64,000 nt of DNA from an uncultured delta proteobacterium (GTDB lineage: Bacteria > Myxococcota > Myxococcia > Myxococcales > Myxococcaceae), in NCBI GenBank assembly GCA_963771175.1, contig CAVYSY010000032.1:416001-480000 (forward strand), given 5' to 3'. The position numbers and the translations under genes are program-made. Positions 49,102-64,000 of this stretch are shown piece by piece. Under the pieces are notes generated by a model. It saw only the letters and a list, made by a program, of their open reading frames with translations, made no database searches and was not told where the DNA came from. Numbering within the stretch: position 1 is the stretch's first letter; each line of letters begins with the position of its first letter.

Positions 49102-49291
49102 ATGAAGCGCGCGTCGGAACCCGGGGGACAGCCAATCATGCTCGCGCTGTTCGTGTTCGCCGTGGCGGCGCTCCTCTTCGGCTCGCCCCTGCGCCAGCTC
49201 TGGCTGCGCGAGGGCGCCCCCTGGTACCAGCCCTTCACCGTGTGGCTCGGCGTCATCGGGCTCGGGGCCTGGGCCGCACGCCGGAGCGGCC

Positions 49292-49302
<11 letters not shown>
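49102..49302 (+). CDS. cbrX: CbrX-like small two-TM membrane peptide (66 aa)
   Basis: GGAGG then ATG 49102. LLFGSPLRQLW...APWYQPFTVWLGVI resembles Pseudomonas CbrX as recalled (LFSP..DWW...AWYRPYLLWL). The stop overlaps the kinase start by 11 nt. Confidence 0.72.
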
Positions 49303-52247
<2,945 letters not shown>

Positions 52248-52375
52248 CATGACGCGTCTCGTCACGCCGTTTGGAAGTGGACAGAAACCCGGGCAACGGG
52301 ACTACCCTCTCGGTCAAGCCTTCCGAGGGATTCGCCCAGTTCCCGCGAGCGGCCTCGGAAGGGGGGGCAGCAGCC

Positions 52376-53737
52376 ATGAGCCGCATCCTGGTCATCGAGG
52401 ACGAGCCCGTCATCCGCACCGAGCTGCGGCGCCTGTTGACGCGAGCGGGACACGACGTGGCCGAGGCGAGAGCCATCCACGAGGCCGAGACCGACTACGC
52501 GCTGGACACGTTCGACCTCATCCTGAGCGACCTGCGCCTGCCGGGCGCGCCGGGCACGGACGTCATCGCCAAGGCGCCGGGCGTGCCGGTGCTCATCATG
52601 ACGAGCTACGCCACGGTGCGCTCGGCGGTGGATGCCATGAAGCTGGGCGCGGTGGACTACATCGCCAAGCCCTTCGACCATGACGAGCTGCTGCTCCAGG
52701 TGGAGCGCGTGCTGCGCGAGGGCCGACTGAGCCGGCAGAACGCCGCGCTGAAGCGCGAGGTGGAGCGCGCGTACGCGGTGAGCGGGATGGTGGGCACCTG
52801 CGCGGCCATGCGTGAGGTATTCGAGCGCGTCCGCAAGGTGGCGGCCTCGCCGGCCACGGTGCTGGTGCTGGGCGAGTCCGGCACGGGCAAGGAGCTGGTG
52901 GCGCGCGCCCTCCACGCGCAGAGCCCCCGGCATGACGGGCCACTGGTGGCCGTCAACTGCGCCGCCATCCCCGAGGGCCTGCTGGAGTCCGAGCTGTTCG
53001 GCCACGAGAAGGGCGCCTTCACCGGAGCACAGACGGCGCACGCGGGCCTGGTGGAGAGCGCGGACGGGGGCACGCTCTTCCTCGACGAGATTGGCGAGCT
53101 TCCCGCCCCGGCCCAGGCCCGCCTGCTGCGGATGATGCAGGACGGAGAGGTTCGACGCGTGGGCGCCACGCGCTCGCGCAAGGTGGACGTGCGCATCGTC
53201 GCCGCCACCCACCGGGACCTGCCCAAGCGCGTCCAGGAGGGCGCCTTCCGGCAGGATCTCTACTTCCGCCTGCGCGTGGTGGAGATCAAGCTGCCGCCCC
53301 TGCGCGAACGTGGCGAGGACGTCCCGGCGCTCGCGAAGCACCTGCTGGAGAAGGCGTGCCAGCGGCTCAACCGCCCCCCCGCGACGTTCTCGCCCGAGGC
53401 GCTGGCGACCATCGCCACGCACCCCTGGCCCGGCAACGTGCGCGAGCTGGAGAACGCCCTCGAGCGGGCCGTCATCCTCGCCGATGGCCCGGTCATCACG
53501 CCCGGGCTGCTCGCGCTGGAGCCCGGTGGCAACAGCGCCTTCGAGACGCCGGAGCTGCCCGATCCCGGCATCGAGGGCAGCGCCTCGCCCGACTCGCTGG
53601 AGGAGTACTTCCGCCGCTTCGTGCTGGAGCACCAGGAGAAGTTGGGCGAGACGGAGCTGGCGCGCCGGCTGGGTATCAGCCGCAAGGCCCTCTGGGAGCG
53701 GCGCCAGCGGCTCGGCATTCCTCGCATGCGCGCCTGA
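52376..53737 (+). CDS. cbrB: sigma54-dependent response regulator, CbrB-like
   Basis: REC (LSDLRLP), GESGTGKE, GAFTGA and WPGNVREL. The C-terminal SLEEYFRRFVLEHQ...ETELARRLGISRKALWERRQRLGIPR is characteristic of CbrB. Confidence 0.88.
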   Translation: MSRILVIEDEPVIRTELRRLLTRAGHDVAEARAIHEAETDYALDTFDLILSDLRLPGAPGTDVIAKAPGVPVLIMTSYATVRSAVDAMKLGAVDYIAKPFDHDELLLQVERVLREGRLSRQNAALKREVERAYAVSGMVGTCAAMREVFERVRKVAASPATVLVLGESGTGKELVARALHAQSPRHDGPLVAVNCAAIPEGLLESELFGHEKGAFTGAQTAHAGLVESADGGTLFLDEIGELPAPAQARLLRMMQDGEVRRVGATRSRKVDVRIVAATHRDLPKRVQEGAFRQDLYFRLRVVEIKLPPLRERGEDVPALAKHLLEKACQRLNRPPATFSPEALATIATHPWPGNVRELENALERAVILADGPVITPGLLALEPGGNSAFETPELPDPGIEGSASPDSLEEYFRRFVLEHQEKLGETELARRLGISRKALWERRQRLGIPRMRA

Positions 53738-53899
53738 TGAAGCGCTCGTCAGTCCCCGCAGTGACCAATCCGTGACAGTCCGGGCGTGTTCTGCCCTCAA
53801 CGTCCGCACGCGCCGGGCCCGTGGGCCGAGCGCCATCCCGTGCTCTCTTGTGCTTCCAGACGCTCTCCCGGAGTTGGGGGGAGCAGGGGAGCCGCGTCC

Positions 53900-55804
53900 A
53901 TGCACAGCACATCCATCGTGGGAGTCGGGCTGGAGGGGACCCGGACACCGAAGCCGTCCGTCCCCTCGCCGCCCCGCCTTGGTCCATGGGCATGGGTCCT
54001 GGCGCGGCTGGACGCATGTCTCCCGGAGTCGCTGCGCCAGTCTTGTCCCGTGGAGCTCAGTCGGGGCCGGCTGCTGGTGGGCATCCTCGGGATGCTGCAG
54101 CTGCTCAACCTGCTGGTCCTGTTCTTCTACGTGCGGTTGAGCCCGGACCCGTGGCGCACCGGCTTCATCCAGATGGCGTGCCTGGTGGGCTTCACCGGAA
54201 CGCTGTGGAGACTGCGCCGGGCCTCGTCGCTCCGGTTGCCCTCGCTGGCTCTGTGCTTCCTCGTGACGGCGTCCGTGATCTCCGAGTCCTGGTTGACCGG
54301 ACAGCAGTTCGTGGCCGTGAACGTCATGGCCATGCTGGTGCCGATGCTGAGCGTGTACCTGCTGGGACTGCGCTGGGGCCTGTTCTTCACCGCGCTCATC
54401 GCCGTGAACACGGGCATCCTCCACCCCCTCGCCTTCCCGCCTCCGGGAGGCCCGATGCTGAACGCCTTCTCGGCGATCTTCGTCCTGTGCGGCTGGCTGG
54501 TGAGCTGGATGTTCCTCGCCTCGCGCGAGGGGGCACACGCGGCGCTCGAGCAGGCGCTGCGGACGATGCGCGACAGCGAGGGCAAGCTCGTCAGCCTCTT
54601 CGAGAGCACGGATGACCCGGTGTTCTCCCTCGACACGCGGGGGCGGATCATCACCACCAACCAGGCGGGGAAGGAGGAGTGCCACCAGCTCTTCGGGAGC
54701 GAGCCGACCCAGCTCGGGTCCATCTTCGACGTGCTCGCACCGGAGCATCGGACCCTCTGGAAGGAGCGGCTCGAGCAGACACTCAGTGGGCAGCGCGTCC
54801 GCTTCCAGGTGGACACCCTGGTGCAGGGCCGACTCCGGGTCATGGACATCAGCCTCAACCCCGTCTTCGGGGCCGAGGGACACCCGGTGGGGGTCACCCT
54901 CTTCGGGCGGAACATCACCGCGCTCAAGGAGGCCGAGGCCCGGCTGAGCGAGCTGCACCGCAGCCTGCTGGACGTGTCGCGCCAGGCGGGCATGGCGGAG
55001 ATGGCCACCGGCATCCTCCACAACGTGGGCAACACGCTCAACAGTGTGAACGTGTCGGCGGGGGTCATCTCCGAGCGGCTGCGCTCCCTGCGAGTGGCCG
55101 GCGTGTCCAGGGTCTCGGGGTTGCTGCGCGAGCACGCGCACGACCTGGGCGCCTTCTTCACCCAGGACCCCCGGGCCCAGCAGCTCCCCGCCTATATGGA
55201 GACGCTCTCCGAGCAGCTCGTCGCCGACCAGGAGGCGCTGCTGGCCGAGACGCGGGCGCTCAACCAGAGCGTCGAGCACATCAAGGCAGTGGTGAGCATG
55301 CAGCAGTCGCAGGCGCGCTCCTCCGGCATGCTGGAGCAGATATCGGTGCCCCAGCTCCTGGACGATGCACTGCGCCTGCACACCCTGTCCTTCGGGCGCC
55401 TGGGCATCCAGGTGCGCACCGAGTACGCCGCGGTGCCGCCCGCGATGGTGGATCGGCACAAGCTGCTTCAAATCCTGCACAACCTGCTGACCAACGCGCG
55501 GCACGCGGTGCTCGACAACGGCGGACCGGACAAGCTGATCTCCGTCCGCGTGGCACAACACCCCCAGGGGTGGCTGCGCATCGAGGTGACCGACAACGGC
55601 GTGGGCATCCGGCCGGAGCACCTGCCGCGCATGTTCACCCAGGGCTTCACCACGAAGAAGGATGGGCATGGCTTCGGCCTGCACATCAGCGCGCTGGCGG
55701 CCGAGGAGATGGGCGGCTCGCTCACGTGCGCGAGCGCGGGCACGGGCCAGGGAGCGACCTTCTCCATCGAGCTCCCCCTCGAGGGCCAGGAGCCCAGGGA
55801 CTGA
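53900..55804 (+). CDS. multi-TM PAS sensor histidine kinase
   Basis: Five to six TM segments, PAS, AGMAEMATGILHNVGN H-box, NLLTNA and GFTTKKDGHGFGLH. Confidence 0.9.
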   Translation: MHSTSIVGVGLEGTRTPKPSVPSPPRLGPWAWVLARLDACLPESLRQSCPVELSRGRLLVGILGMLQLLNLLVLFFYVRLSPDPWRTGFIQMACLVGFTGTLWRLRRASSLRLPSLALCFLVTASVISESWLTGQQFVAVNVMAMLVPMLSVYLLGLRWGLFFTALIAVNTGILHPLAFPPPGGPMLNAFSAIFVLCGWLVSWMFLASREGAHAALEQALRTMRDSEGKLVSLFESTDDPVFSLDTRGRIITTNQAGKEECHQLFGSEPTQLGSIFDVLAPEHRTLWKERLEQTLSGQRVRFQVDTLVQGRLRVMDISLNPVFGAEGHPVGVTLFGRNITALKEAEARLSELHRSLLDVSRQAGMAEMATGILHNVGNTLNSVNVSAGVISERLRSLRVAGVSRVSGLLREHAHDLGAFFTQDPRAQQLPAYMETLSEQLVADQEALLAETRALNQSVEHIKAVVSMQQSQARSSGMLEQISVPQLLDDALRLHTLSFGRLGIQVRTEYAAVPPAMVDRHKLLQILHNLLTNARHAVLDNGGPDKLISVRVAQHPQGWLRIEVTDNGVGIRPEHLPRMFTQGFTTKKDGHGFGLHISALAAEEMGGSLTCASAGTGQGATFSIELPLEGQEPRD

Positions 55805-55820
55805 CGCCCGCGCGCGAGCG

Positions 55821-56456
55821 CTACCGGATGTGGGACGGGTCGTCCGGCACCACCCACAGGTACAGGGTGGTCCCGTCGGATTCGACGGTGCGCTCCGGTT
55901 CCCAGCCCTCGATGTCGAAGGCATGCGAGACGATGCGCGTCCCCGGCTTCAGCTCGCCCAGCAGCTTCGGCTTGAGCTGGGTGTTGACGCTCGGCAGCAG
56001 GTACATCGTCACCACCGTCGCGTCGCCGATGTCCGCCTTGAAGATGTCCTCCTGACGGAACTCGGCGAGGTCCTGCACGCCCTCGGCGCGAGCGTTGGCC
56101 TCGGCCTCCTGGATGCGCTCGGGGTTGATGTCGATGCCCACCCCGTGCACGCCGTACCGCTTCGCCGCGGTGATGACGATACGCCCGTCTCCCGAGCCCA
56201 GGTCATAGAGCACGTCCCCCGGCTTCACGTCGGCCAGCTCCAGCATGTCGTCCACCACCTGCTGCGGGGTGGGCACGTACGGCACGTCCGGCGGCTTTTC
56301 GGGCAGGTCCGAACGTCCCAGGTTGTACGGCACGTACAGGGGCGCCGCGGATTCATCCTGGTCCTGGTTCTGGTCCTGTGACTGAGCCAGCGCCGAGAGC
56401 CCCAGCGCGCCCACGCCCATCAGCGCTACACCGAACGCGGCTTTCCGAATCTCCAT
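55821..56456 (-). CDS. class I SAM-dependent methyltransferase with N-terminal signal peptide
   Basis: GGAGG then ATG 56456; signal peptide ending ALA-Q; DVPYVPTP, YDLGSGDGRIV and LKPGTRIVSH. Confidence 0.88.
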   Translation of the reverse strand: MEIRKAAFGVALMGVGALGLSALAQSQDQNQDQDESAAPLYVPYNLGRSDLPEKPPDVPYVPTPQQVVDDMLELADVKPGDVLYDLGSGDGRIVITAAKRYGVHGVGIDINPERIQEAEANARAEGVQDLAEFRQEDIFKADIGDATVVTMYLLPSVNTQLKPKLLGELKPGTRIVSHAFDIEGWEPERTVESDGTTLYLWVVPDDPSHIR

Positions 56457-57887
56457 GTCTTGCGACCTCCAGGTGAGGGGTTTCCTCGCGGGCGGGCCTT
56501 CCGCCGGTGCATGAGCGCGAGCGGAATCAGGCCCGTGGCCAGCACCACCACCCCGACAAGCGCCCCCGCTCCGGTGTACGCGAGACTCGAATAGAGGAGA
56601 TACGCGCAGGTCGCGCAGAACAGCAGCGGGGTGAGCGGGTACAGCGGCACGCGGAAGGGGCGCACCACGTCCGGCTCGCGCCGGCGCAGCACCAGCAGCG
56701 ACACGCCCGTGAGCAGGAAGAAGAACCAGAAGACGGGCGCGGTGTACTCCACCATCGTCTCGAAACCGCGCCGGGTGATGGCGCCCACGCCCACCAGGAC
56801 CAGGGCGATGGCCCCCTGCACCAGCAGCGCGTTCACCGGCGAGCCCGCGCGCGCGCTCCACCGCCCCAGCGGGGAGAACATCGGGAAGTCCCGCCCCAGC
56901 GCGTAGTGGGTGCGCGAGCCCATGAGAATGGTGGCGTTGGACGAGGTGAGCACGGCCGCGCAGATGAGGAGGCTGATGAGCCGCGCGCCCGGGGCGCCGG
57001 CCACGTGCCGCAGGAGATCCGCCGCGACCGCCTCCGATTGCCCCATGCCCGCCAGCCCCAGCGCCTTCAGGTAGGCCACATTGACCAGCAGGTAGAGGCC
57101 CGTCACGGCCACCAGGCTCCACAGCAGCGCGGACACGATGCTCCGGCGTCCCGCCATGCAGCTCGCTGGAGATGTAGGCCGCCTCGTTCCACCCTCCGTA
57201 CGTCAGCAGCACGAACACCATCGCCAGACCCCAGGCGGCATGGCGCGGCCCGTCCTGAGCCATCTCGGCGGCGGGTGGCGGCGCGGCCGGTGGGAAGAAG
57301 AGCCCCGCGACGATGACCAGCCCCAGTCCCACCACCACCATCACCGTGAGGAGGTTCTGCGTCCACTTGCCCAACCGGATGCCGGCCACGTTCAACCCGG
57401 TGAGCACCACCACCGAGAGCGCGGCGTAGATGGCGGAGGAGTGCTCGCCCAGCGGCAACAGTTGCGAGGCGTAGTCCCCGAAGATGAACCCCAGCAGCGC
57501 GATGGAGCCGGTGGGAATGACCGTCAGCCGCGCCCAGGCGAACAGGAAGGCCAACGAGTCCCCGAGTGCCCGCCGCAGGTAGTGATAGTCCCCTCCGGCG
57601 TGGGGCCAGGTGCTGGCCAGCTCCGCGTAGCACAGGGCCCCGATGAGGGAGACCAGCCCGCCGAGGCCCCACAGCAGCAGCACGGAGGCCTCGCTCGACG
57701 CGTTCGCCGCCACCATCGAGGGCGTGCGGAAGATGCCCGCCCCCACCACGATGCCCACGATGAGCGCGATGGCGTCCGCGACGCGCAGGCTCGGCAGGGG
57801 GAGCGCCGCGGACCCCTCCGGCGGAGCGGCCGTGTCGAGGCGCGCCTCGCCTGGCCGCCCCTCCCCCTGGTCCCGCTCACGCCTCAT
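56426..57887 (-). CDS. APC family amino acid permease (one +1 frameshift near 57150)
   Basis: GIVVGAGIF, LCYAEL, GGDYHYL, LTYGGWNE; continues in ORF 56426-57157 with RPFRVPLYP. Confidence 0.88.
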
Positions 57888-57990
57888 CAGCTCCACCCCC
57901 TGGATGTGTGAAGGGATGGACACCTCCCGGGAACGAGGCAATGTGCCCCGCTCCACCGAGTGCTCGGCGAGGGTCCAGCGGGGCGAGCCG

Positions 57991-58028
57991 GCGTTACCGG
58001 GGTGACGCATCCGTTACCTTTCGAAACG
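57991..58028 (+). promoter_or_regulatory. putative enhancer-binding-protein sites (CGTTAC boxes)
   Basis: GCGTTAC-N4-GTGACGC (57991-58008) and a second CGTTAC at 58012, 20 bp after the first, 70-90 bp upstream of the sigma54 element. Confidence 0.5.
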
Positions 58029-58080
58029 TCCGACGCGGTGTGGCAGGCGCCAACCCCGCGAGAACATTCATGCTGCGGCC

Positions 58081-58096
58081 TGGAATGAGCGTTGCT
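58081..58096 (+). promoter_or_regulatory. sigma54 -24/-12 promoter of the acetate operon
   Basis: TGGAAT-N5-TTGCT with exact GG-N10-GC spacing. Confidence 0.65.
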
Positions 58097-58109
58097 CATG
58101 GAGGCTCGC

Positions 58110-59258
58110 GTGCGACCCCACACACCGCCTCGACCCACCTCTCTCGTCGTCCTCCTGGCCGCGATGGCGGCCCTTGTCCTTCCCACCCCGGCTCACGCCG
58201 TGAAGGTTCCGCTGGGAGAAGGCCCGGCCACGCTCAACGTCAATGTGCTGGCACAACCCTGGGTGCAGCTCTCCAAGGACGGCGCACCCGCCGGCGGCAT
58301 GGGCACGGACTTCTTCCTGAGGCGAATCCGCCTCCTCGTCTTCGGCAACGTCACCGAGCGCGTCTCCTTCTTCATGGAGACGGACCAGCCCAACCTGGGG
58401 CGTGACGGCAACTGGGACCCGGCCTTCTTCGTCCAGGATGCCTTCATCTCCGTGAAGCTCACGGAGAGCCCCCAGTTCTTCATCGACGCGGGCATGATTC
58501 TCGCCCCCTTCACCCACCACTCGCTGCAGGGCGCCGTCGCGCTCAACACGGTGGACTACCACGCCTCGCTCGTCCGCTTCCCGCGCAACGAGGGGAAGAT
58601 CTGGCGCGATGCGGGCGTGCAGTTCCGCGGCTTCGCGGGGCCGCTGCACTTCCGCCTGGGCGTCTTCAACGGCATCGAGGGCACGAAGGCCACCGACACC
58701 GCACCCGCCATCAACCCGGACGACATCCCGCGCGTGGCGACCCACATCCGCTACAACTTCCTCGGCAAGGAAGAGAGCTTCTTCTTCAACGGCATCTACT
58801 TCGCGGACGCGCCGAAGCTGTCGGTGGGCGTGGGCGCGGACTACCAGCCGCGTGCGGTGCTGGCCGCTGGCCACGAGCGGGATGACCTGAACGTGGGCGT
58901 GGACCTCTTCCTCGACTACCCCATCGCCGAGAACCAGGAGCTCGTCTTCCAGACCAATGCCTTCCGCTACTGGCAGGGCCGGGAGAACACCAACAGCGGC
59001 TTCGGCATCTTCGGCGAGTTGGGCTACCGCATCGGCATCATCGAGCCCGTCTTCTCCGCCGAGTACTTCAACGCGGACGTGGCCGACACGGACTTCCTCG
59101 CGCTGCGGCCCGGGCTCAACGTCTGGATGATGAAGCACACCTTCAACTTCAAGGCGGAGGTGGCCGTCCAGCGCCAGCAGATGCCCGCCACCGCCGCCGC
59201 CGAGGCCAGCACCACCACCGCCGTGGTCGGCACCGCCCAGCTCCAGCTCTTCTACTGA
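58110..59258 (+). CDS. outer-membrane beta-barrel porin (OprO/OprP-like); start could be ATG 58098
   Basis: Signal peptide ending AHA, FFLRRIRL, QDAF, WRDAG, amphipathic strands and terminal QLQLFY. Confidence 0.8.
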   Translation: MRPHTPPRPTSLVVLLAAMAALVLPTPAHAVKVPLGEGPATLNVNVLAQPWVQLSKDGAPAGGMGTDFFLRRIRLLVFGNVTERVSFFMETDQPNLGRDGNWDPAFFVQDAFISVKLTESPQFFIDAGMILAPFTHHSLQGAVALNTVDYHASLVRFPRNEGKIWRDAGVQFRGFAGPLHFRLGVFNGIEGTKATDTAPAINPDDIPRVATHIRYNFLGKEESFFFNGIYFADAPKLSVGVGADYQPRAVLAAGHERDDLNVGVDLFLDYPIAENQELVFQTNAFRYWQGRENTNSGFGIFGELGYRIGIIEPVFSAEYFNADVADTDFLALRPGLNVWMMKHTFNFKAEVAVQRQQMPATAAAEASTTTAVVGTAQLQLFY

Positions 59259-59291
59259 GCCCCCTTCCCCCGAGCCCCCAGGAGACACCGG

Positions 59292-61243
<1,952 letters not shown>

Positions 61244-61270
61244 CCCACCCCCAAGGAGAAATCCCGCACC

Positions 61271-61549
61271 ATGTCCCAGAAATCCAAGGCCGATGAGCTC
61301 GAAGCCCTGGCGGCGGCGCGCTGGCGCGTGGCCGCCGTCCTCACCGCCGCCACGCTGGTTTCCTACTTCGGATTCATCCTGCTCGTCGCGTTCAACAAGC
61401 CGCTGATGGGCAAGCAGATCGCCCCGGGGCTGTCGCTCGGCATCCTCCTCGGAGCACTGGTCATCGCCACCGCCTGGGTGCTCACCGGCATCTACGTCTG
61501 CTGGGCCAACAACCGCTACGACAAGGCCCTCCACCAGTACCGCCGCTGA
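61271..61549 (+). CDS. yjcH: DUF485 (YjcH-like) membrane protein
   Basis: [10 protein letters not shown]...LTGIYV.WAN..YD; typical position before actP; RBS AAGGAG. Confidence 0.9.
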
Positions 61550-61565
61550 GCCCGGAGCCACTCGA

Positions 61566-63189
61566 ATGAATCCACAGCAGACAACGACCTCGATCGGCGA
61601 GCCCAACGCCATCGCCATCGCTCTTCTTCCTGGCGTTCGTGGGCCTCACGCTCGCCATCACGTACTGGGCGGCGCGCAAGACGAAGACGACCTCGGAGTT
61701 CTTCACCGCGGGCGGAGGGGTGAGCGCGCCTCCAGAACGGCTTCGCGCTCGCCGGCGACTACATGAGCGCCGCGAGCTTCCTGGGCATCGCCGGCCTGGT
61801 GGCGCTCTCCGGCTTCGACGGCCTCATCTACTCGGTGGGCTGGCTGGTGGGCTGGCCGGTGGTGACGTTCCTCATCGCCGAGCCGCTGCGCAACCTGGGC
61901 AAGTACACCTTCGCGGACGTGGTGGCCTACCGGCTGAAGCAGACGCCGGTGCGCATCTCGGCCGCGGTGGGCACGCTCACCGTGGTGAGCTTCTACCTGA
62001 TCGCCCAGATGGTGGGCGCCGGCAACCTCATCCGCATGATGTTCGGCCTGTCCTACGAGATGGCCGTCTGCATCGTGGGCGTGGTGATGATCCTCTACGT
62101 GCTCTTCGGCGGGATGATCGCCACCACGTGGGTGCAGATCGTCAAGGCGGTGCTGCTGCTGGCGGGCGCGACGCGTGCTGGCGGTGATGGTGCTGGCGAA
62201 GTTCGACTTCAGCCCGCTGGAGCTCTTCCAGACGGCGGCCAACCAGTACGGCCCGGAGGTGCTGGCGCCGGGCAAGCTGGTGTCGAGCCCGATGGAGGCG
62301 GTGTCGCTGGGCCTGGCGCTGATGTTCGGCACCGCGGGCCTGCCGCACATCCTCATGCGCTTCTACACGGTGCCCAACGCGAAGGCGGCGCGCAGCTCCG
62401 TGTTCTACGCCACCGGCCTCATCGGCTACTTCTACCTGGTGACGTTCATCCTCGGCTTCGGCGCCTCGGTGCTGGTGGGCCGCGCCGCGCATCACGGGCG
62501 TGGACAAGGGCGGCAACATGGCGGCGCCCATGCTGGCCGAGGCGCTGGGCGGCACGCCCTTCCTCGGCTTCATCTCCGCGGTGGCCTTCGCCACCATCCT
62601 CGCGGTGGTGGCCGGGCTGACGCTGTCGGGCGCGGCGGCGCTCTCGCACGACCTGTGGACGAGCGTGGTGCGCAAGGGCAAGGCGCCGGAGCACGAGCAG
62701 CTCCGGGTGGCCAAGCTGGCCAGCCTCGCCCTGGGAGTTCTCGCCATCCTCCTGGGCATCCTCTTCAAGGGGCAGAACGTGGCCTTCATGGTGGGCCTGG
62801 CCTTCGCCATCGCCGCGAGCGCCAACTTCCCCGCCCTGCTGCTGTCCATGGCCTGGAAGGGCTTCACCACGCGCGGCGCGGTGGCGAGCATGATCACCGG
62901 CGCGGTCAGCGCGGTGGTGCTCATCTTCCTGTCGCCCACGGTGCAGGTGGACCTGCTGGGCAACAAGGACGCGCTCTTCCCGCTGAAGAACCCGGCCCTC
63001 GTCACCATGCCGCTGTCCTTCCTGGTGGGCTGGATGGTGTCGATGATCTCCCCCGAGCCCGAGGCGTCCGGCCGCTTCGCCGAGGTGCGGCACCGCATGC
63101 ACGTGGGTGCCGAGGTCGAGGCGTCCCACGCCACCGCCAAACCCGCGACGGAGGCTCCCGTGGCGACCCCGGACGCCCAGACCACCTGA
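61566..63189 (+). CDS. actP: cation/acetate symporter ActP (four +1 frameshifts)
   Basis: [49 protein letters not shown] and [20 protein letters not shown]. Confidence 0.92.
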
Positions 63190-63195
63190 GCACCC

Positions 63196-63226
63196 GCGGC
63201 GGGGACGGCATCCTCGTCCCCGCCGC
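63196..63226. terminator. terminator hairpin between convergent genes
   Basis: Perfect 12-bp stem GCGGCGGGGACG-N7-CGTCCCCGCCGC. Confidence 0.6.
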
Positions 63227-63234
63227 TTCCCCCT

Positions 63235-64000
63235 TCAGTGGGACTCCTCCTGCCGGTCTGGCCTCAGCGGCAGCTCCACGATGAAGGTCGCTCCCTCGGA
63301 GGGACGACTCTCCACGCGGATGCGCCCATCCATGGCCTCGATGATCTGCTTGGAGATGAACAGCCCCAGCCCCAACCCGCCGTAGTGTCGTTCCGACACC
63401 GCGCGCCCGAAGCGGCTGAACAGGCGGGATAGGCCCTCGGGGGCGATGCCGATCCCCTCGTCCCGGATACTCAGCACGGCATGCCCCGCTTCGACCTTCG
63501 CGCGCACGTGGATGGGCCTGCCCGCGCCGTACTTGGCCGCGTTGGAGAGCAGGTTGACCAGCACCTGCTCCAACCGGAGCAGGTCCCAGTACCCGAGCAC
63601 CGGCTCCGTGGGGGGAAAGTCCACGGAGCACTCAGCCAGGGAGAACACCTCCGAGAGCCGATCCAGCACCTCGCGGATGAGCTGGGTGAGCTCCATGTCG
63701 ATGGGCTCGAGCCTCAATCGGCCAGCGGTGATGCGGCTCACGTCCAGGAGGCTGTCCACGAGCGAGGAGAGCCGGCCCACCTGCCGGGCGGCCACCGAGA
63801 GCCTCGGAGCAACGGACTCCCGACACTCCCCGGGCAAGAATCGGTCGATGAGCTGATGCTGGAGCTTGAGCGAGGTGAGCGGCGTCTTCAGCTCATGGCT
63901 CGCGATGGAGAGGAACTCGTCGCGCAGACCCACGGCCTGCCGGGTTTCTCGAAAGAGGCGGAGGTTCTCGAGGGCCATGGCCAACCGGTGGGCCAGTTCC
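63235..64000 (-). CDS. GAF-histidine kinase, C-terminal part (5' end outside the window)
   Basis: [11 protein letters not shown] end, [18 protein letters not shown] and GGLGLGLFI. Confidence 0.92.

Follow-up and report, generated by a model that had tools for sequence, protein, structure and literature searches.

The window analyzed here, a 64,000-nucleotide stretch of contig CAVYSY010000032.1 (assembly GCA_963771175.1), derives from an Archangium-like genome, the closest named relatives of its kinase being Archangium-group records at 82–90% identity. It carries genes for a small membrane peptide, a histidine kinase and a sigma54 activator, followed at some distance by an operon encoding a porin, an acetate-CoA ligase (acs), a DUF485 protein and a cation/acetate symporter (actP) (Table 1). 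A first-pass annotation, made from the letters alone, had given the gene order porin-acs-DUF485-actP, which is borne out by family matches and coordinates, and had placed a CbrAB-like pair about 4.3 kb upstream; the regulator indeed ends at 53737, 4.25 kb from the operon. From the comparative evidence set out below, we consider it very probable that the regulator, CbrB, directly activates porin-acs-DUF485-actP through a sigma54 promoter.

Table 1. Features of the locus, in window coordinates
Feature	Position	Strand	Remarks
cbrX-like gene, 54-residue membrane peptide	49138..49302	+	3' end overlaps the cbrA start
CbrA orthologue, SLC5-STAC-PAS histidine kinase	49292..52247	+	PAS and HisKA found; one +1 frameshift near 51963
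CbrB orthologue, REC-AAA+ sigma54 activator with CbrB-type C-terminal DNA-binding end	52376..53737	+	Pfam
Predicted CbrB enhancer	57992..58028	+	F1 CGTTAC 57992, R1 GTGAC 58002, F2 CGTTAC 58012, R2 GAAAC 58023
Predicted sigma54 -24/-12 promoter, TGGAATGAGCGTTGCT	58081..58096	+	conserved in relatives
Outer-membrane porin (OprO/P- and ExtI-like)	58110..59258	+	orthologue MXAN_5855
acs, acetate-CoA ligase	59292..61243	+	five +1 frameshifts; orthologue MXAN_5856 (AcoL)
DUF485 (YjcH-like) small membrane protein	61271..61549	+	PF04341, E 2e-25; MXAN_5857
actP, cation/acetate symporter	61566..63189	+	four +1 frameshifts; MXAN_5858
Archangium-specific insert: PAS histidine kinase (+), SAM methyltransferase (-), APC amino-acid permease (-)	53900..57885		outside the conserved system

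The intact congener copy of acs scores 930 bits against a TIGR02188 cut-off of 725, and the top NCBIfam matches of the actP pieces are ActP and cation/acetate symporter models, at scores below cut-off. The Porin_O_P match of the first gene is weak and is found in 11 of 14 homologues, its predicted beta-barrel resembling trimeric porins.

The kinase and regulator are orthologues of CbrA and CbrB

The kinase matches the SLC5-STAC structure of CbrA (PDB 10ED; PMC13022988) with 515 bits over residues 2–588. Its intact orthologue P0272 has a HATPase domain and no REC, and REC is present in L112, P0247 and P0252. In a quick IQ-TREE analysis of 34 rows chosen out of a 148-row FastTree, the CbrA-type kinases group as a single clade (SH-aLRT 100), distinct from the CrbS-type hybrid kinases, and within it 12 gammaproteobacterial-side rows (support 100) separate from 12 myxobacterial-side rows (99), with three rows unplaced. 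A Methanothrix SLC5-STAC-DUF835 protein (P0221) stood beside the CbrA clade in the large FastTree; the smaller tree leaves its placement unresolved.

For the regulator we took as reference, in place of Pseudomonas CbrB, the sigma54 activator of a canonical Amphritea locus (L111) with the order dksA-gluQ-cbrX-cbrA-cbrB-pcnB-folK and TGTTAC/GTAACA boxes upstream of its own sigma54 site. The window protein is 57% identical to it, the C-terminal segment being nearly identical, with 67% identity over the last 45 residues. The cbrX-like peptide likewise matches the small gene that precedes cbrA in L111 (34% identity, E 9e-10), and open reading frames similar to cbrX are visible in many relatives. 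By kinase clade, DNA-binding end and cbrX overlap, the pair that had been called CbrAB-like is a true CbrX-CbrA-CbrB orthologue. The Amphritea japonica locus itself (L111:5757-10900) lies outside the Pseudomonadaceae and holds a complete cbrX-cbrA-cbrB set with an A-rich, crcZ-like gap ahead of pcnB-folK; its record is labelled a plasmid yet carries chromosome-type genes.

With the kinase as query, matches at E<=1e-40 were found in 90 of 207 other genomes of the family, G225 matching only at the level of second SLC5 kinases, and in 7 of 19 genomes of a family outside the order; the regulator end matched in 88 of the 207. Of the 91 matching genomes, all except 5 have a single SLC5 kinase match, and therefore no CrbS-type second system was found using this kinase query. 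In L042 (14892-17711) and L102 a second, non-CbrA SLC5 kinase lies in the same cluster, behind acs-DUF4212-symporter-like genes.

A predicted sigma54 promoter with putative CbrB boxes precedes the operon

The promoter elements reported by the first-pass annotation are present as described, namely TGGAAT-GAGCG-TTGCT at 58081–58096, CGTTAC half-sites at 57992 and 58012 and the near-palindrome GCGTTAC-CGGG-GTGACGC at 57991–58008, to which we add a fourth, degenerate half-site, GAAAC, at 58023–58027. Counted from the T of TGG, F1 lies at -88, R1 at -79, F2 at -68 and R2 at -58, in the layout F1-N4-R1-N6-F2-N5-R2. Taken singly, each motif is weak evidence and near chance level in the window: CGTTAC occurs 7 times against 6.6 expected, and 16 of 100 shuffles reach the sigma54 pattern and 7 of 100 the dyad. 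Their combination exceeds chance. Only 2 of the 1205 TGG-N8-TTGC sites genome-wide have at least two GTTAC/GTAAC boxes 30–130 bases upstream, and CGTTAC-N4-GTRACG occurs a single time in the genome (9.8 Mb). A scan of 57800–63400 for sigma70-type sites, which did not extend to the ACTU motif, gave none.

The predicted transcription start, near 58107, falls about 3 nucleotides ahead of the porin GTG. Most relatives also place the start codon 12–16 bases past the -12 element (window 58097–58112): of 35 porin-first loci, 32 have an in-frame start 12–16 bases after TTGCN, and acs itself begins 14 bases after it in several loci of Archangium. For such spacing the usual sigma54 geometry would give a leader of 2–6 nucleotides. 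The operon transcript is predicted to be nearly leaderless, in which case the GGAGG at 58100 would fall outside the mRNA. In the accessible part of PMC12754779, leaderless mRNA in myxobacteria is proposed only for a sigmaA promoter.

The predicted promoter and the linkage are conserved together with cbrB

Neighborhoods were taken from a chosen subset of the positive genomes. Of the 79 loci where cbrB is complete (one genome being counted twice among the misses), 68 have a same-strand acetate-type gene within 8 kb; several of the 11 loci without a linked acetate-type gene end at a contig edge. The 4.3-kb gap between cbrB and the operon is an Archangium insertion, because at 35 of the 79 loci the acetate-type gene is found within 600 bases of cbrB. 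Loci of other genera gave no matches to the genes of the insert. The distance to cbrA grows to 17 to 100 kb in four Archangium genomes, with cbrB still within about 7 kb of actP; one of the genomes, G015, has about 100 kb between cbrA and cbrB. Both the cbrA-cbrB gap (window 52250–52375) and the cbrB-operon gap (53740–57990) take variable insertions in Archangium. Two genera (L093:11923-13500 and L099) have a shortened acs-like protein of about 510 residues after cbrB, which matches the first half of Acs models only.

Of 104 oriented loci, 74 remained once 8 duplicates had been removed along with 22 that had no porin, acs or DUF485 match. The composite of a sigma54 site plus boxes lies ahead of an acetate-type gene in 70 of these, compared with 80 of 5000 random windows from the same loci. 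The boxes of relatives stand at about -111, -89, -79, -68 and -59 from the T of TGG, that is, in helical steps, so that the motifs of the window are kept with the same phasing, and which half-sites stay perfect varies between genera. As a control we read up to 3.3 kb (0.5 and 1.7 kb in two cases) upstream of the closest acs in genomes without a cbrB match, one genome without upstream DNA being dropped, and found the composite in 0 of 19. Within a single genus the cbrB-positive G077 has the composite and eight cbrB-negative genomes are without it.

A second acs and other candidate targets

The genome scan also pointed to a second acs, unlinked to the operon, where the boxes of GTTAC-N5-GTAAC (G000:C26:670640) lie 90 and 80 bases upstream of a sigma54-like site. 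All 14 genomes having the gene retain the boxes and 13 of them the sigma54 site, and a congener's copy clears the acetate-CoA ligase cut-off. The gene was not found in five cbrB-less congeners (96–100% complete), which are scattered rather than grouped on a one-locus tree. In G007 (73% complete), which has no cbrB match, the second acs is present with a damaged -12 element. The gene stands back to back with a CHASE2 adenylate cyclase-like gene (G000:C26:668600-670750; L182, L186; judged by eye).

The same promoter also stands ahead of an unlinked porin (G140). In a further family the genes after cbrB are an acs-like gene, DUF4212, a VC_2705-type symporter and a propionate-ligase-like gene, again with boxes and a sigma54 site. 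One box set in G119 (L098:11875-13500) is flanked by divergent sigma54 sites, the first ahead of acs and the second ahead of a porin-like gene. Ten box sites were inspected in all. Citrate synthase (G000:C10:127255) was rejected as a target, the GTAAC pairs being absent in 10 congeners with a correctly read upstream region (6 of 17 rows were mis-anchored), and seven other sites had no convincing target. G195 (L181) has a second dyad without a sigma54 site. Four GTTAC/GTAAC words at G000:C54:139759-139800, ahead of a 4-hydroxyphenylpyruvate dioxygenase-like gene and beside a MarR-like gene, are probably the operator of another regulator. The CbrB regulon would on this evidence be small and dedicated, comprising this operon together with, in Archangium, the second acs and, in other genera, porins or transporters.

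Orthologues in Myxococcus xanthus

The genes have M. xanthus orthologues in the same order, MXAN_5852–5858, in which CbrA corresponds to MXAN_5852 and CbrB to MXAN_5853 by order. The tables of PMC11804543 (PNAS 2025) list a histidine kinase (5852), a sigma54 regulator (5853), a porin (5855), acs (5856), DUF485 (5857) and actP (5858). MXAN_5856 (AcoL) was shown in vitro to be an acetate-CoA ligase, and its loss improves predation (bioRxiv 2023.12.11.571100); the residues mutated in it, G367 and W396, are present in Myxococcus Acs orthologues.

In the RNA-seq data of PMC11804543 the wild-type mean counts step up 80-fold, from 122 for MXAN_5854 to 9713 for MXAN_5855. Because of this jump, a strong promoter is placed in the gap of about 190 bases between the two genes, which holds the boxes. 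On three prey species MXAN_5855–5858 drop 2- to 7-fold, and on E. coli MXAN_5852 and MXAN_5853 change little (325 to 385 and 1981 to 1348, respectively); in an Acs-null evolved strain MXAN_5855 rises 3-fold, to 30194 (PMC11804543). Further sources list MXAN_5852/5853 as a pair (PMC4603909), report MXAN_5855, 5856 and 5858 as changing together (PMC11980068) and describe parallel mutation of MXAN_5852 in four evolved populations (bioRxiv 2021.06.17.448787). In the accessible portions of PMC11804543 and bioRxiv 2021.06.17.448787, MXAN_5852/5853 are neither named CbrAB nor tied to the operon. The four supplementary files of the Cappable-seq paper PMC8844925 have no rows for MXAN_5852–5856, its genome-wide data being in ArrayExpress.

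The sensor pocket and the signal

The histidine pocket of CbrA comprises Y51, S53, W55, A56, F71, Y75, K196, F248 and F406, and the window kinase is identical at five of these nine positions (Y, W, Y, K and F), with the changes S53T, A56S, F71Y and F248S. At S53, A56 and F248 (P. putida positions) the myxobacterial-side kinases have T in 51 of 67, T or S in 65 of 67 and S or A in 62 of 67, and the outgroup, which includes the CrbS-type hybrids, has T (38/40), T (40/40) and S or A (38/40). On the gammaproteobacterial side the same positions are S or G (35/41), most commonly A (18/41) and F (36/41). The CrbS-like pocket residues favor a short-chain acid as the predicted input; that the signal is acetate itself we regard as evenly balanced.

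The Pseudomonas form of CbrAB, with its CrcZ wiring, may be the derived one, because the myxobacterial sensor keeps a CrbS-like pocket and forms a clade apart from gammaproteobacterial CbrA. A metagenome scan for gammaproteobacterial CbrA loci returned kinase-domain matches only. Of the 'rewired acetate switch' in the first-pass annotation, control of the acetate operon by CbrAB is supported; as to the rewiring, control of acid uptake may instead be ancestral. We tentatively suggest, giving it somewhat less than an even chance, that the myxobacterial system keeps the ancestral job of CbrAB, that of a sigma54-coupled short-chain-acid sensor with a CrbS-like pocket driving its own uptake and activation genes, and that Pseudomonas derived histidine binding and global control through CrcZ. 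In M. xanthus the system would then fill the place of the missing AcoL regulator, by way of a nearly leaderless sigma54 transcript.

A model for the locus and its alternatives

Direct sigma54 activation by the CbrAB-like pair, as the first-pass annotation proposed, is supported by orthology, synteny, motif conservation and phasing, the cbrB-less control and the unlinked target, from which we infer the regulatory link. In the model CbrA, with CbrX, would phosphorylate CbrB, which would occupy two tandem half-site pairs on one helix face (57992–58028) and contact sigma54. Sigma54 RNA polymerase would thereby be activated at 58081–58096 and porin-acs-DUF485-actP transcribed. The input would be acetate or another short-chain acid, which is the step of which we are least sure. 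Acetate taken up through the porin and ActP would be fixed by Acs, and Acs activity would in turn reduce the inducer level and dampen the promoter.

Several observations weigh against this model. Four of the 74 loci are without the composite ahead of an acetate-type gene, in L041 and L091 the promoter precedes an MFS-like transporter instead (family judged by eye), and the cbrB-positive G078 has an unlinked acs without it. The genomes are related, so that the counts are not independent, and the acs genes of the cbrB-less control, 58–69% identical, were taken by similarity rather than tree-based orthology. P. putida CbrB binds some sites without activating them (PMC6296734). Contigs from 4 of the 24 listed RNA runs, placed on a Myxococcus locus, cross the predicted start, contigs being unable to reveal starts. 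The Acs-null strains also carry epsJ D79N, and the operon decreases on E. coli prey, so acetate is no more than a candidate signal. Two cbrB-less congeners, G002 and G005, keep the sigma54 site with one and three boxes, respectively; this may reflect recent loss of cbrB, because G005 carries cbrA/cbrB remnants.

The same two genomes also fit a view in which another enhancer-binding protein, or the inserted PAS kinase, drives the sigma54 promoter and cbrAB is a mere neighbor. The boxes are short, at 5–6 bp, and myxobacteria have dozens of enhancer-binding proteins; against this, the boxes agree with published CbrB half-sites, the DNA-binding end of CbrB is conserved, no cbrB-less control genome has the composite and the inserted kinase is found in Archangium loci only, and we judge such a view unlikely. 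Slightly less likely still is that the operon of this genome is a decaying pseudogene cluster with a relic promoter. Such decay would fit the frameshifts in acs, actP and cbrA and the state of some congeners, Archangium genomes having lost porin, acs or cbrAB in differing combinations. All ten breaks are, however, single-base insertions relative to an intact congener (acs 5, actP 4, cbrA 1), and intact segments of acs and the first actP piece are 89–97% identical to that congener. The frameshifts, which the first-pass annotation does not mention, are likely assembly errors, because rpoA, an essential gene, is likewise split in the same assembly.

A stronger competitor keeps the same wiring and differs from the favored explanation in the signal alone: the input would be a general carbon or energy shortage, as in Pseudomonas CbrAB, and the operon a scavenging module switched on in the absence of better carbon. 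The repression of MXAN_5855–5858 on all three prey species fits this, as do the Pseudomonas CbrAB targets, whose expression is raised on poor carbon sources and is at its lowest in rich medium (PMC8871633, PMC6296734), and the finding that the PAS-kinase part of CbrA works in chimeras without its own SLC5 domain (PMC8871633). Loss of Acs could also raise the promoter via low acetyl-CoA instead of high acetate. The genome-wide box clusters nevertheless indicate a narrow, acid-specific regulon, and pocket positions 53, 56 and 248 are like those of CrbS-type kinases and unlike gammaproteobacterial CbrA. We hold a shortage signal to be a serious possibility, a little short of evens.

Comparison with known systems

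CbrAB has been called unique to the Pseudomonadaceae (review PMC8871633), and its activating signal is described as still unknown (PMC8871633, PMC13022988). The present locus extends CbrAB to predatory myxobacteria, gives MXAN_5852/5853 a predicted function and acoL a predicted regulator, and offers, in an organism amenable to genetics, a CbrAB copy whose single output is narrow, which makes the signal question directly testable. Both acoL and MXAN_5852 were hit in M. xanthus evolution experiments. A literature search, with subscription journals mostly outside it, returned nothing on CbrAB in myxobacteria or on sigma54 control of this operon; the pairing of a CbrAB sensor with a CrbSR-type regulon, which the first-pass annotation did not recognize as described, thus has no paper in myxobacteria that we could find.

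As in the CbrX-CbrA/CbrB systems of Pseudomonas and Azotobacter, cbrX overlaps cbrA, the kinase is an SLC5-STAC-PAS protein without REC and the sigma54 activator ends in the same C-terminal DNA-binding segment. The TGTTAC half-site that the first-pass annotation gave for CbrB agrees with the published TGTTAC/GTAACA consensus, in which TGTTAC-N12-14-GTAACA-N15-19-GTAACA (PMC8871633) has its subsite centers 20–25 bp apart on one helix face (PMC6296734). The GTTAC/GTAAC half-sites here are similarly about 20–22 bp apart, upstream of a sigma54 promoter beside cbrB, whereas the F-R spacing of the myxobacterial form is 4–5 bp instead of 12–14, about one helical turn less. Unlike the Pseudomonas system, the myxobacterial form belongs to the Myxococcota and a clade of its own, its adjacent target is a protein-coding acid-uptake operon and not the CrcZ RNA, S53, A56 and F248 become T, S and S in the window kinase, and its regulon looks narrow rather than global. 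No crcZ was seen after cbrB, where the box-bearing promoter runs straight into protein-coding genes (no Rfam, crc or hfq search was made), and the canonical pcnB-folK order occurs in L111 only.

The other relevant system is CrbS/CrbR (MxtR/ErdR) of Vibrio, Pseudomonas and Sinorhizobium, given in the first-pass annotation as the SLC5 kinase system that activates acs/actP in many proteobacteria through a LuxR-type regulator. Published work is in accord, describing CrbS as a hybrid kinase and CrbR as a LuxR-type regulator that acts at RpoD promoters through the ACTU motif (PMC5715377, PMC9100948). With it the myxobacterial system shares an SLC5-STAC sensor, the pocket positions 53, 56 and 248 of the CrbS-type hybrid-kinase outgroup and, by predicted promoter, the targets acs and actP with a small upstream gene. 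It differs in having a kinase without REC and a sigma54 activator as regulator, and the operon region scanned gave no sigma70-type site. By sensor, regulator, peptide and box the system is thus identified as CbrAB, and by its predicted targets it would perform the job of CrbS/R.

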